From: Gemmatimonadota bacterium
GTDB taxonomy: Bacteria > Gemmatimonadota > Gemmatimonadetes > Palauibacterales > KS3-K002
DNA: 60,940 bases
Assembly: GCA_039586795.1 (NCBI GenBank)
Contig: JBDHJS010000019.1
Location: 1-60,940, forward strand
Reading direction: 5' to 3'
Shown: positions 13,405 through 20,308 of the stretch, piece after piece
Numbering within the stretch: position 1 is the stretch's first letter
Layout of the letters: each line of letters starts with the position of its first letter
Made by a program: the position numbers and the translations under genes
The notes under the pieces: generated by a model
Seen by the model: only the letters and a program-made list of their open reading frames with translations
What the model was told of the DNA's origin: nothing
Database searches by the model: none

Positions 13405-14715
13405 ATGCTCGTGAGGTTGCGTGTGCCGGCGCTACTCGGAATCGCGGCGGTACTGGGTTGCAGTGACAGCACTGAGCCCGGCAGCGTTCCGGCCGAGGTT
13501 CACGCCGTGTCCGGCGATGCGCAGGTCGGCACTGTCGGGATGCAGCTAGAGGATCCCCTCGAAGTGCGAGTGCTCGATTCTCGAGGGCGCGCGCTAGCGG
13601 GCGTTGTCGTCGTCTTTTCTGCATCGCAGGGTGACCTGGCTGGCGGCCCAGTAAGCTACTTCCCGGCCGTCGATGCGACTCTGGGGCTTTCGATGGCTCC
13701 GGCTATTCAAGAGACGAGCGACGCCGCCGGTTGGGCCCGGGCCGTCTGGACTCTGGGAACGGTGGCTGGTGAGCAGTCGGTGACGGTCGAGGTCGACGGC
13801 GTCGACCCGGTCACCTTTTCGGCGACGGCCAGTCCGGGAGCGCCGGCGGCGGTCGCCGTCGCTGGCGGCGACGGTCAGATAGACCAACCTGGAGCGGTGT
13901 TGGCTGCGTCCCTCGCGGCAAGCGTTGTGGACCAATTCGGAAACCCGAGAGCCGGCGAGACGGTTGATTGGGCTATCATAGCTGGTGGTGGAGATCTTTC
14001 GAGCTTGACAGGCCTGACGGATAGCAGCGGTGTAGCGAGCACGCTTTTGACCCTCGGCGGCGCTATCGGTTTCAACACTGTACAAGCTTCGAGCGACGGA
14101 TTGAGTTCGGCGCGTTTTCACACGCTGGCGCTGGCGATGGCCTGGGACGATGCCGTAGCTGACACGTTCTCCGGTGGCCTGTCCGGTAACAGGGTGTTAG
14201 CAGATCTTGCTCAGGTCGGCTACGCTTGGGACGCGGACACGCTGATCATCGGCCTTGCGTTCGTCGATTCCGTGGTCTCTACGCTGGTAGGTGGCGCGAA
14301 CGCGATGGGCGGTGTGCTCGATTTCGATATCGATCTGGATTCGCTCACGGGAATCGAGTCGCTGGCGGATCGGTATAGACCAGGCTCGGGTTCGACCGGC
14401 ATGGGCGTCGACATCGTCCTGGACATGTTCGCCGACGCGTCCGGGGAGTTCCTGATCTTCAACGATCGCATGCAGACGCTGGGCTCGACGACGCCGGACT
14501 TTCGAGGGCGGTTGCTTACGATGCGCGTCCCGGCTGCGTTCATTGGAACCGGTCCGCTGGCGATCGCGGTGACGGCCGGTACTCCCGCAGAGCCGACCGA
14601 CATCGCGCCTAATGATAGCAGCTACCTGGTGGCCGCAGGAGGTACGCCGACCCGACCGGAGGCGAAGGCTCCGGCAGGAGCGGCTGTCAACTATATAAGA
14701 GAGAGTTGGCAGTGA
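13405..14715 (+). CDS. Lipoprotein with two bacterial Ig-like (Big_1-type) domains
   Basis: SD AGGAG; lipobox VLGC; repeated (S/G)GD.Q.G.....L...L.V.V.D..G motif. Confidence 0.75.
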   Translation: MLVRLRVPALLGIAAVLGCSDSTEPGSVPAEVHAVSGDAQVGTVGMQLEDPLEVRVLDSRGRALAGVVVVFSASQGDLAGGPVSYFPAVDATLGLSMAPAIQETSDAAGWARAVWTLGTVAGEQSVTVEVDGVDPVTFSATASPGAPAAVAVAGGDGQIDQPGAVLAASLAASVVDQFGNPRAGETVDWAIIAGGGDLSSLTGLTDSSGVASTLLTLGGAIGFNTVQASSDGLSSARFHTLALAMAWDDAVADTFSGGLSGNRVLADLAQVGYAWDADTLIIGLAFVDSVVSTLVGGANAMGGVLDFDIDLDSLTGIESLADRYRPGSGSTGMGVDIVLDMFADASGEFLIFNDRMQTLGSTTPDFRGRLLTMRVPAAFIGTGPLAIAVTAGTPAEPTDIAPNDSSYLVAAGGTPTRPEAKAPAGAAVNYIRESWQ

Positions 14716-17786: not shown

Positions 17787-18416
17787 ATGAAGCTCGCTAT
17801 CATCGGAACCGGAAACGTTGGCGGCACCCTCGGCCGACTATGGGCGGAACTCGGTCATGACATCGTCTATGGCGTACGCGACCCGAGCGCCGCCAAAGTG
17901 CAGAGCTTGCTGGGGGAGTCTGGCCCCCGCGCCCAGGCCATGCCGATTGAGGAGGCCGTTGCTGCAGGTCAGGTTGTCGTCCTCGCCGTGCCGTGGACCG
18001 TAGCTGAAGGGGTCGTGCGCCGTGCCGGTTCGTGGAGTAACAAGATCCTCGTCGATGCGACCAACCCCATCGTGCCGGGACTCGAGTTGGCCGTCGGGCA
18101 CACGACATCCGCGGCTGAAGAGATCGCCGCCTGGAGTGTAGACGCCCGCGTTGTAAAAGCGTTCAATACGCTGGGATACGAGCACCTGTCAAACCCCATG
18201 TTTGGAGAACACACTCTAAACATGTTCGTGTGCGGCGATGATGAAGAGGCGAAGTTCGTCGTGGCGGGATTAGCCCAGGAACTCGGTTTCGAAGTCGTCG
18301 ACGCCGGGCCGTTAGGCGCGGCTCGGCTGCTGGAGCCGCTGGCGATGCTATGGATCCGGCTTGCCATGGTGGAAGGTGAGGGGAGAGAGATAGCGTTCAA
18401 GCTTCTCCACCGCTGA
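17787..18416 (+). CDS. NADPH-dependent F420 reductase / NADP oxidoreductase family protein
   Basis: IIGTGNVG Rossmann motif, VLAVPW, DATNP, VVKAFNT, GDDEEAK, DAGPL..AR.LEP. Confidence 0.9.
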   Translation: MKLAIIGTGNVGGTLGRLWAELGHDIVYGVRDPSAAKVQSLLGESGPRAQAMPIEEAVAAGQVVVLAVPWTVAEGVVRRAGSWSNKILVDATNPIVPGLELAVGHTTSAAEEIAAWSVDARVVKAFNTLGYEHLSNPMFGEHTLNMFVCGDDEEAKFVVAGLAQELGFEVVDAGPLGAARLLEPLAMLWIRLAMVEGEGREIAFKLLHR

Positions 18417-18429
18417 TCGAGCGAGCAGC

Positions 18430-19290
18430 ATGTCGTCTGAAACAGTCACGACGATCGACTTCCACATCACTGCGGAGTGCAGTCAGGAGTGCCCGTACTG
18501 CTGGGGTCCGCGAGACTTCGAATGCCCCGTCGATACCGACATAGCCCTGGCGATCGTTTCCAAGGTCAAGGACGTCGGTGCCCGGCGAATCGTGTTCACG
18601 GGTGGCGATCCGCTCAAACGGCCTGATGTCGCTACGCTCATCCGACACGCCAAGAAGGTCGGCCTCCAGGTGGCGCTCTCTACAACGGGGGATGAGCTCT
18701 CCCTTGAATTCCTCGACAGCGTCGGTACCTGTATCGACCTCATATCGATCCCGCTCGATGGTTCATCGGAGGCTGTGAATTCGCGGACGAAGGAATCCGG
18801 CCATTTTGACGCCGTGCAGTTGGCACTGAGCAGATTGCGCAGCTACCCGGAGATCGACGTGAAGATCTGTACGCCGGTCACCCGCAGGAACATCGACGAT
18901 GTGCCCAACATTGTGGCGTTAGCAGAGCGCTACGCGGCGACGACGGACGCGCGAGTGTTCTACAACATCTTTCAGACTTACCCGCGCGCGATGTTCGATG
19001 CCGAGTGGGCTGATCTCGTTGTGAGCGATGATGAATTCAGGACACTGGAAGAGAGGGTCGCGGGGACGACAACGCTCCGAGTGAATTGTTTGAGTCATCA
19101 AACGCTAGATCGACTCTATGCCATGATCTTCCCCGATGGCAGCCTGGTCGTGCCGTCGGGAAGGAAGTACTCGAGCTATGGTCAATTCCTCGATGTGACC
19201 GACCTTGCCGCAACACTGGCGTCTAGCGAGTTCGACTCTGCAAAACACCTTCTCCACTCCAAAGGTTGGGAGAAGCTGCCGCCCACTTAG
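18430..19290 (+). CDS. Radical SAM protein, viperin (RSAD2)-like
   Basis: FHITAECSQECPYC (CxxxCxxC), FTGGDP, KICTPV, IFQ, VSDDEF, YAMIFPDG, C-terminal FLDV...SEFD. Radical SAM call is firm; the viperin relationship comes from a by-eye comparison. Confidence 0.85.
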   Translation: MSSETVTTIDFHITAECSQECPYCWGPRDFECPVDTDIALAIVSKVKDVGARRIVFTGGDPLKRPDVATLIRHAKKVGLQVALSTTGDELSLEFLDSVGTCIDLISIPLDGSSEAVNSRTKESGHFDAVQLALSRLRSYPEIDVKICTPVTRRNIDDVPNIVALAERYAATTDARVFYNIFQTYPRAMFDAEWADLVVSDDEFRTLEERVAGTTTLRVNCLSHQTLDRLYAMIFPDGSLVVPSGRKYSSYGQFLDVTDLAATLASSEFDSAKHLLHSKGWEKLPPT

Positions 19291-19375: not shown

Positions 19376-20308
19376 TTGAGGGCACTATTCGCAGGACTGA
19401 TCGTGGTTCTGTTCGTTGGCTGCGCGGGAGATGCGGCGCGCGAGCCCATCCAGCCGCTGGTGGACGCGGCCTGGCTCAGTTCTCACTTAGGTGACGTTGC
19501 GATTCTCGACGTCAGATATGGCGCCCCGGAGGGCGCGGACCGGGCGGCCTTCGAATCTGGACACATACCGGGCGCCGTTTTCGCCGGATATAGAGCGTAT
19601 CCGTGGGTCGTGGAGCGCGATAGCGTGCCGATGATGATGCCTCCAATCGAGGACCTGGAGCAGCTGATCGGCGGTTTCGGCGTCTCAAACGACGACCACG
19701 TGGTGATCGTCACCAACGGCACATCCGCCGGCAACATGGGGTCCGCTGCGCGTATTTACTGGCAGTTAACGGTTTTGGGCCACGATCGGGTTTCGATTCT
19801 GAACGGTGGATTCGCCAGCTGGGAAGAGGGCGGATACCCGGTGGAGACGGGCTGGATCGACCCTGAGCCTAAAGACTTTGAAGCGCAGTACCGCCCAGAA
19901 CTCGTCGCCGCGACGAGCGACGTCGTCGAGGCACAGGCCGCTGGGACACCGCTGATCGATGCAAGGTCGCCAACCTACTTCAGCGGAGAGCGTAAGTCCG
20001 GAATCGCAGCACGTCACGGTACGATTATGGGCGCCGAAAACTTGCCGGCGCAGATATGTACAGTCGAAGACGGCGGGACTTTCATCGACGCCACGCTCGC
20101 CGCCGAGTCGTGGCGAGCGGCCTCGGTTCCGGTTGAGGGTGAGCAGATCATGTTCTGCAACGGGGGCTACCTGGCCGCAGTGACATGGTTCACCGCCTAC
20201 GCCATCCTCGGGAACAAGGAAGCTCGTCTTTATGATGCCTCCTTAGCGGAGTGGTCGGCGGATCCTGAACTGCCGATGACAGCTGAGCTGGAGCCGGCCG
20301 TCAACTAG
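19376..20308 (+). CDS. Tandem-domain rhodanese/sulfurtransferase, lipoprotein
   Basis: SD GGAGG + TTG; lipobox FVGC; GHIPGA, LNGG..W, IDAR, active-site FCNGG, YDASLAEW. Confidence 0.9.
   Translation: MRALFAGLIVVLFVGCAGDAAREPIQPLVDAAWLSSHLGDVAILDVRYGAPEGADRAAFESGHIPGAVFAGYRAYPWVVERDSVPMMMPPIEDLEQLIGGFGVSNDDHVVIVTNGTSAGNMGSAARIYWQLTVLGHDRVSILNGGFASWEEGGYPVETGWIDPEPKDFEAQYRPELVAATSDVVEAQAAGTPLIDARSPTYFSGERKSGIAARHGTIMGAENLPAQICTVEDGGTFIDATLAAESWRAASVPVEGEQIMFCNGGYLAAVTWFTAYAILGNKEARLYDASLAEWSADPELPMTAELEPAVN

Follow-up and report, generated by a model that had tools for sequence, protein, structure and literature searches.

Viperins, eukaryotic and prokaryotic alike, dehydrate nucleoside triphosphates (NTPs) to 3′-deoxy-3′,4′-didehydro-NTPs (ddhNTPs) as an antiviral defence. 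Among bacteria they occur in 0.5% according to the available part of the Shomar preprint (10.1101/2023.09.13.557418), and the viperin trees in the available parts of this preprint and of PMC10732462 are rooted directly on MoaA, so that the space between viperin and MoaA is unexplored. Here, we describe a tight, single-gene family that we place in that space; in its sharply defined pocket, viperin's likely ribose-contacting residues are kept and the rest is rebuilt. No description of this family was found in the full-text literature within reach, which left out most subscription papers; the supplements of the Shomar preprint could list borderline sequences. The gene lies in a window of 60,940 nt, the whole stretch of Gemmatimonadota DNA that was analysed, whose content is of the housekeeping type (a vWA/DUF58/DUF4175 cluster, sucAB-lpd, nhaA, pur genes, panBCD, lexA and aspS). 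The gene, its cluster motif and its two neighbours are:

17787..18416, plus strand: NADP oxidoreductase (F420_oxidored), ending 13 nt upstream of the radical SAM gene
18430..19290, plus strand: viperin-like radical SAM gene, 286 aa (ORF scan; Pfam PF04055; NF038283, 79.1 bits)
18478..18501, plus strand: CxxxCxxC cluster motif, C17/C21/C24, all three Cys in 183/183 family rows
19376..20308, plus strand: rhodanese-type sulfurtransferase, downstream neighbour of the radical SAM gene

The reading frame starts with ATG and its translation is intact, with no stop inside; we predict with near certainty that the product is an active radical SAM enzyme. Four RNA-labelled runs had 5–10% of words in common, and in three of them short contigs at least 99% alike covered part of the gene at a depth of 2–4.5, although in both results DNA carry-over may be involved. 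A homologue search retained 980 homologues out of 3,570 candidates; the best 120 of them are 60–100% identical, mostly 281–330 aa long and generically named where named, and the named records related to the gene are from Gemmatimonadota. When 1.84 billion representatives were searched, just 49 proteins scored below 1e-30, and beyond those 49 came relatives of about 280 aa aligned end to end with the query. Scanning of 95 of the 150 listed relatives revealed 92 outside the family that match pVip profiles at 63–179 bits, and 12 proteins of this radiation compared with NCBIfam were all below the NF038283 cut-off. Since close homologues are few and are followed by pVip-matching relatives of about 280 aa, the gene represents one tight family within a large unnamed viperin-like radiation. 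ESM Atlas matches were unnamed radical SAM clusters only.

How far does the likeness to viperin extend? The preliminary description of this DNA had proposed that the protein follows the viperin motif order along its full length. Indeed, the family profile aligned with six annotated pVips over 258 columns (99.8%), all the quoted motifs are present (residues 9–17, 53–61, 144–150, 177–182, 197–203 and 229–237) together with the parts of the C-terminal motif (residues 244–246, 253–256, 266–269 and 280), and the viperin counterparts given there match fungal viperin sequences. The likeness over the whole length exceeds what chance would produce. One match has to be given up in part: GRK...FLDV is present in the translation, but the family as a whole does not share GRK (R245 in 34/183 rows; Glu or Asp at 246 in 142/183), and judged on the alignment its agreement with viperin is coincidental. 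The top NCBIfam match was NF038283 (viperin_w_prok; E 3e-22, residues 8–273 on profile positions 3–276 of 281), for which the 79.1 bits fall below the cut-off of 180 bits; four family homologues scored 70–88 bits and three true pVips 270–305 bits. Among the 25 NCBIfam matches listed, viperin alone spans the protein, the other 24 ending by residue 215 and most at about 175. The PADLOC pVip profiles gave 97 bits (residues 8–273) and 83.5 bits.

The C-terminal part was compared separately:

18952..19275, plus strand: viperin-type C-terminal region, residues 175–282 (hhalign, 94.8% to viperins)

It contains Tyr230, Pro242, Phe/Tyr247, His273, His276 and Trp280 and lacks the auxiliary-cluster Cys. 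Its hhalign match to viperins (E 5e-8) compares with 1.9% for PqqE/MftC/SPASM and 0.1% for a MoaA profile of two sequences. The family rows carry a single CxxxCxxC and no auxiliary cluster, as viperins do: Cys after residue 150 number zero in 130 of the 183 rows and never more than two, and a Pfam search of the gene product found no SPASM domain. The viperin C-terminal extension, whose presence had been named as a check, is there at the sequence level; with residues 175–282 matching viperins and late Cys so few, its loss is ruled out at that level. C-terminal homology and the lack of conserved C-terminal Cys thus bear out the earlier assignment to a viperin-scaffold radical SAM enzyme and not to MoaA, PqqE or SPASM proteins.

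The position of the family was analysed in trees in which viperins were represented by six plasmid genes, by homologues of these and by viral-contig copies, cellular eukaryotic viperins not being included. Five of the six plasmid genes carry a viperin annotation, and the sixth, which adjoins a kinase, is annotated as a moaA/nifB/pqqE protein. After redundancy filtering, the 87-row trees held 48 distant relatives (drawn from 90 as the 22 best and 26 random), 20 viperins, 8 family rows and 11 outgroups, and a careful tree of 50 rows held 23, 12, 7 and 8, respectively, without P0125. Viperins formed one clade in every tree (100, 95, 100/100), with the family outside each time. In the careful tree the family (100/100), which is tight internally and sits on a long branch (1.27), was nested among viperin-like proteins at 89/96, the split between the viperin-like whole and the MoaA/PqqE/SPASM outgroup reaching only 87/84. 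Five unnamed proteins joined the viperin clade in this tree at 100/99. These proteins (P0155, P0168, P0203, P0213 and P0268) score 150–171 bits, just below the viperin cut-off, and retain the basic residues, the first-strand Asn and His being mostly absent; by sequence they are better candidates for the true viperin sister group. Given these closer relatives and the family's place elsewhere, the idea that the gene represents a sister clade of viperins is unsupported. AU tests on a quick LG+G4 tree could reject neither that position (p 0.523) nor one beside the outgroup (p 0.678), but they are uninformative because the tree search was unconverged and constrained trees outscored the free tree. 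In sum, the family is not a viperin and, by these trees, probably not the immediate sister of viperins; that the protein is built on the viperin scaffold while standing outside viperins is, from its sequence, highly probable.

Several members of the wider radiation deserve mention. Distant viperin-like domains occur in fusions or a giant protein (P0209, P0190, P0196, P0263 and P0163), the partners being PRTase-CE plus receiver, cytidylyltransferase-like, cupin and HTH domains, and one lying within a 6,030-aa protein. Viperin-clade genes were also present on viral contigs (L119–L122 and L128), three of which are labelled giant-virus bins. P0125 and P0127, considered as basal family members, turned out to be a rapidly evolving side branch within the Chloroflexota copies; in P0125, P0127 and L215 the residues after the cluster motif are altered and Asp occupies position 179, so that activity may have changed or been lost.

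Ten pocket positions that are invariant or near-invariant in viperins were compared between 183 family rows and 20 viperins. Most of them lie in four strands:

18457..18465, plus strand: first barrel strand, Asp10 in 182/183 (viperins N 20/20) and His12 in 183/183 (viperins H 20/20)
18586..18612, plus strand: second strand, Arg53, Val55 and the GGDP Asp, each 183/183
18862..18870, plus strand: fifth strand, Lys145 in 183/183 (viperins K 20/20) and C/A/G/S at 147 (viperins N 20/20)
18958..18987, plus strand: sixth strand, Phe177 in 182/183, Asn179 in 183/183 and Arg186 in 183/183

The second-strand counterparts in viperins are R/K (20/20), N (19/20) and the GGEP Glu (20/20), and those of Phe177 and Asn179 are R/K (20/20) and K (20/20). 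Four of the ten positions are retained, namely His12, Arg53, Lys145 and Tyr230 (each 183/183), and six are replaced, namely Asp10, Val55, residue 147, Phe177, Asn179 and His276, the last aligning in all 183 rows with a final invariant viperin Arg that the preliminary description did not mention. What it had reported from one protein, retention of the His, Lys and Tyr positions with replacement of the Asn residues and of the R-W-K basic residues, therefore extends to the family. The replacements are themselves mostly family-invariant and amount to three basic residues gone and Asp10 plus two His gained; Arg186, His125, Trp193 and His273 are further family-invariant residues. His12 and Met232 are common to viperins (20/20 and 19/20); neither is among the three commonest residues at its column in 48 other viperin-like proteins. 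In viperin, the pocket His and Tyr presumably touch the ribose hydroxyls, and we take the triphosphate to be bound by five basic residues and the first Asn. On these roles, the ribose side would be kept, and the phosphate side would have lost three positive charges and gained one negative. A further change, also new here, concerns the base-binding position 12 residues past the conserved Tyr, which is Pro242 in 182/183 rows and Asn (16/18) or Arg (2/18) in viperins, the pattern having missed 2 of the 20. The loop types given in the available part of the Shomar preprint (10.1101/2023.09.13.557418) carry Cys/Lys, Arg, Asn or Asp, and the Pro242 loop fits none of its pocket types. With most viperin pocket residues swapped across the family, the product likely modifies another nucleotide-type molecule, and of the two options first offered, a different substrate or a new antiviral variant, the former is the better reading.

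We favour, with a probability of roughly 0.4, an enzyme, partner-free and outside defence, whose radical chemistry would target the ribose in a common nucleotide-type metabolite with one or two phosphates. As to its parts, the retained residues incline us towards a ribonucleotide-type substrate, the altered pocket makes a substrate other than free NTP rather probable, and a role outside defence seems the better bet; the chemistry is probably viperin-like without viperin membership. In this model, the SAM-derived radical would take a hydrogen from the ribose of the metabolite, which His12 and Tyr230 would grip as in viperin. Abstraction at C4′ followed by dehydration would yield a 3′-deoxy-3′,4′-didehydro or related product. 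The loss of three basic residues and the presence of Asp10 would disfavour a free triphosphate and point to a mono- or diphosphate, whose remaining phosphate may be held by Arg53, Lys145 and Arg186, and a new base site may be formed by Pro242 and Phe/Tyr247.

One rival to this model is a role in defence. An antiviral ddhNTP synthase could still bind a metal-bridged triphosphate if Asp10, His273 and His276 (and Asn179) held a divalent metal and Arg186 replaced a lost basic residue. The four residues retained in 183/183 rows, the full-length match found with viperin only and the survival of the sister position in the AU test would all suit such an enzyme, and the replacement of six of ten pocket positions and of the base-binding Asn speaks against it. 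Genomic distribution cuts both ways. The gene was found in 24/31 genomes of the window's bacterial family (10/12 high-quality genomes, 9/12 genera), with strong matches in 2/30 genomes of the sister bacterial family and presence in 6/201, 1/151 and 18/151 genomes of three other orders, each of these three counts including one centre genome picked as positive. Within one bacterial family it thus approaches fixation, at a housekeeping locus, which argues against defence; in other phyla it is patchy and in other orders rare, a distribution that defence genes typically show as well. Phyla are interleaved in the gene tree, which suggests transfer. The gene resembles its neighbours in GC3 (0.711 versus 0.706–0.726), and its identity to syntenic relatives is similar to that of sucA, sucB and lpd. 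None of the 301 genomes of the phylum has a viperin above cut-off, and the family gene was absent from viral contigs and, at full length, from phage records. Some copies have been degraded. In genus g8, the copies at the suc genes (G009, G022 and G024; L213, L214 and L216 in G024:C5, G009:C34 and G022:C274) have diverged at this ancestral locus, losing Asp10, Asn179 and His276, and one is frameshifted; in G009 and G024 there is, in addition, a copy of full length at another place. This suggests that the family residues are selected in the working copy only. Other copies contain stops or are split (G020, G029, G750 and G794), so the gene is dispensable.

Defence genes were also looked for around the gene. 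PADLOC matched 7 of 98 selected family-neighbour proteins, two of them radical SAM cross-hits, compared with 5 of the 9 proteins next to true pVips, the 98 having been chosen mostly for lacking a Pfam match and including some false ORFs. Among the 45 window ORFs, four others matched PADLOC, each through common domains. No defence island was seen near the gene, and a profile of three pVip kinases found no kinase in 155 loci and the window; this profile is weak, since in 13 control loci the only sequences it detected were the three from which it had been built. The absence of a kinase says little, because a kinase lies beside no more than 12% of bacterial viperins in the available part of the Shomar preprint (10.1101/2023.09.13.557418), and most viperins would thus lack this partner as well. 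Between positions 13405 and 18416 of the window, Ig-like, DsbA-like, DUF6923 and NADP-oxidoreductase genes separate DUF4175 from the radical SAM gene; the two are directly adjacent in several relatives, and the interval has the look of a site where non-defence genes are inserted. Overall, the housekeeping context and near-fixed distribution disfavour the new antiviral variant first suggested; it retains residual weight as a rival that we consider unlikely, and the product probably does not act as a standard antiviral enzyme.

Does the neighbourhood indicate another pathway? The 156 loci compared (75 from genomes, 80 from metagenomes and the window, near-duplicates included) yielded a called radical SAM gene in 153. 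Across these 153 loci there was no conserved partner gene, the commonest gene within three positions being purF (18/153). An operon with the upstream oxidoreductase was discarded as local (within three genes in just 5/153 loci), as was one with the downstream rhodanese (3/153). A DNA-repair link through a radical SAM-HhH gene (TIGR03916-like, below cut-off) was likewise set aside as lineage synteny, this neighbour occurring in 7 loci, all of Chloroflexota and often 280–560 nt apart. A link to F420, evoked by the NADP oxidoreductase, a PNPOx-like fusion and one luciferase-like neighbour, was rejected in the absence of cofD from a genome 97.8% complete. The gene had no promoter or terminator match, and the window contained no Rfam element or tRNA. 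No shared upstream motif emerged, the best spaced palindrome being found in 5 loci and the best 8-mer in 8, with loci whose first motif was unmatched skipped.

Domain fusions are few, and the three kinds observed are unrelated. A PNPOx-like flavin-binding domain is joined to the enzyme in P0121 and L051 (L051:5931-7262), the latter within a heterodisulfide-reductase/FlpD-type cluster, and is possibly a built-in electron donor. A MoaD/ThiS-like N-terminal domain occurs in P0391 and P0392 (L029:7710-8849; L177; L179), which are 72% identical, the di-glycine at the junction being retained in one of the two. P0402 (L030, L237) has a SnoaL-like C-terminal domain. The MoaD/ThiS-like and PNPOx-like fusions, together with the rhodanese adjoining the gene in 3 loci, might indicate a small-molecule substrate other than a nucleotide, for instance a sugar, an amino sugar or the precursor of a cofactor, perhaps tied to sulfur transfer, and Asp10 would fit an amine in a pocket of lowered phosphate-binding charge. 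However, the scarcity and diversity of the fusions, the failure of pathway genes to co-occur in 153 loci and the presence in the genome of a separate MoaA-like gene and no cofD make this reading doubtful.

Modification of a macromolecular ribose, for example in a tRNA or RNA end or in a nucleotidylated protein, would account for a partner-free gene that stands alone and evolves slowly, at housekeeping-like rates, and for a pocket in which ribose-side residues are retained and the triphosphate side lost. Such a target is distinctly improbable, since no RNA-binding domain or fusion was found, the distribution is narrow, and the barrel, closed by the C-terminal region in viperin according to the available part of the Shomar preprint (10.1101/2023.09.13.557418), would suit small molecules. 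Finally, a MoaA-, PqqE- or SPASM-type enzyme with superficial viperin likeness is very improbable: the N-terminal core alone (residues 6–160) fits SPASM-type proteins and viperins with similar strength (E 2e-31 and 2e-26, respectively), the outgroup split and AU test leave room for it, a single-sequence PDB search puts PqqE on top and ESM features of the C-terminal part cluster with SPASM at 0.92 with only 117 features in common, but the C-terminus fits viperins only and is nearly free of Cys, the scores are far under the cut-offs (MoaA 41.5 of 284, PqqE 68.2 of 381), and a PDB search with a profile of 76 family members places nine viperin entries first among 18 matches, above PqqE.

Returning to ribose chemistry outside defence, a broader and tentative proposal is that the family puts the viperin scaffold to a non-immune use: a vertically kept enzyme would convert a nucleoside mono- or diphosphate, or else a nucleotide cofactor, into an undescribed metabolite, and viperins would be a single specialised offshoot of a far larger radiation that modifies nucleotides. 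Knowing what the family does could bring to light a radical SAM reaction or a nucleotide analogue not seen before, and could tell whether the chemistry of viperin occurs outside immunity. If the family does make ddhNTPs, a widespread antiviral family with a new triphosphate-binding mode would have been missed by current HMM cut-offs.

Among known systems, prokaryotic viperins (pVip; NF038283, PADLOC PDLC02903/02904) and eukaryotic viperin/RSAD2 are the closest, with the same length, single cluster motif and motif order, a homologous C-terminal region, and His12, Arg/Lys53, Lys145, Tyr230 and Met232 in both. The family differs from them in Asn to Asp10, Asn to Val55, Asn to Cys/Ala147, Arg/Lys to Phe177, Lys to Asn179, Arg to His276, the base-binding Asn to Pro242 and GGEP to GGDP, and in being near-fixed in one bacterial family and outside the viperin clade, whereas viperin is rare in genomes. 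The viperin-like radiation of about 280 aa (P0136–P0270) contains its nearest relatives in 1.84 billion representatives and shows the opposite on two points, the sixth-strand Lys being mostly kept (40/48) and His12 absent. MoaA (GTP 3′,8-cyclase) shares the radical SAM core and the Lys at 145, but its Arg positions are Asp10, Val55 and Asn179 in the family, which lacks the C-terminal cluster cysteines, and its score and C-terminal match are low (41.5 bits; 0.1%). PqqE/SPASM maturases have a Cys-rich SPASM domain that the family lacks. BlsE (cytosylglucuronate decarboxylase) likewise uses radical SAM chemistry, on a nucleoside sugar; its core matches weakly (34.6 bits of a 400 cut-off, residues 41–154 only), and the motif of three Cys in its C-terminal part, a proposed site for a second cluster in the available part of PMC3715490, is absent from the 183 family rows.
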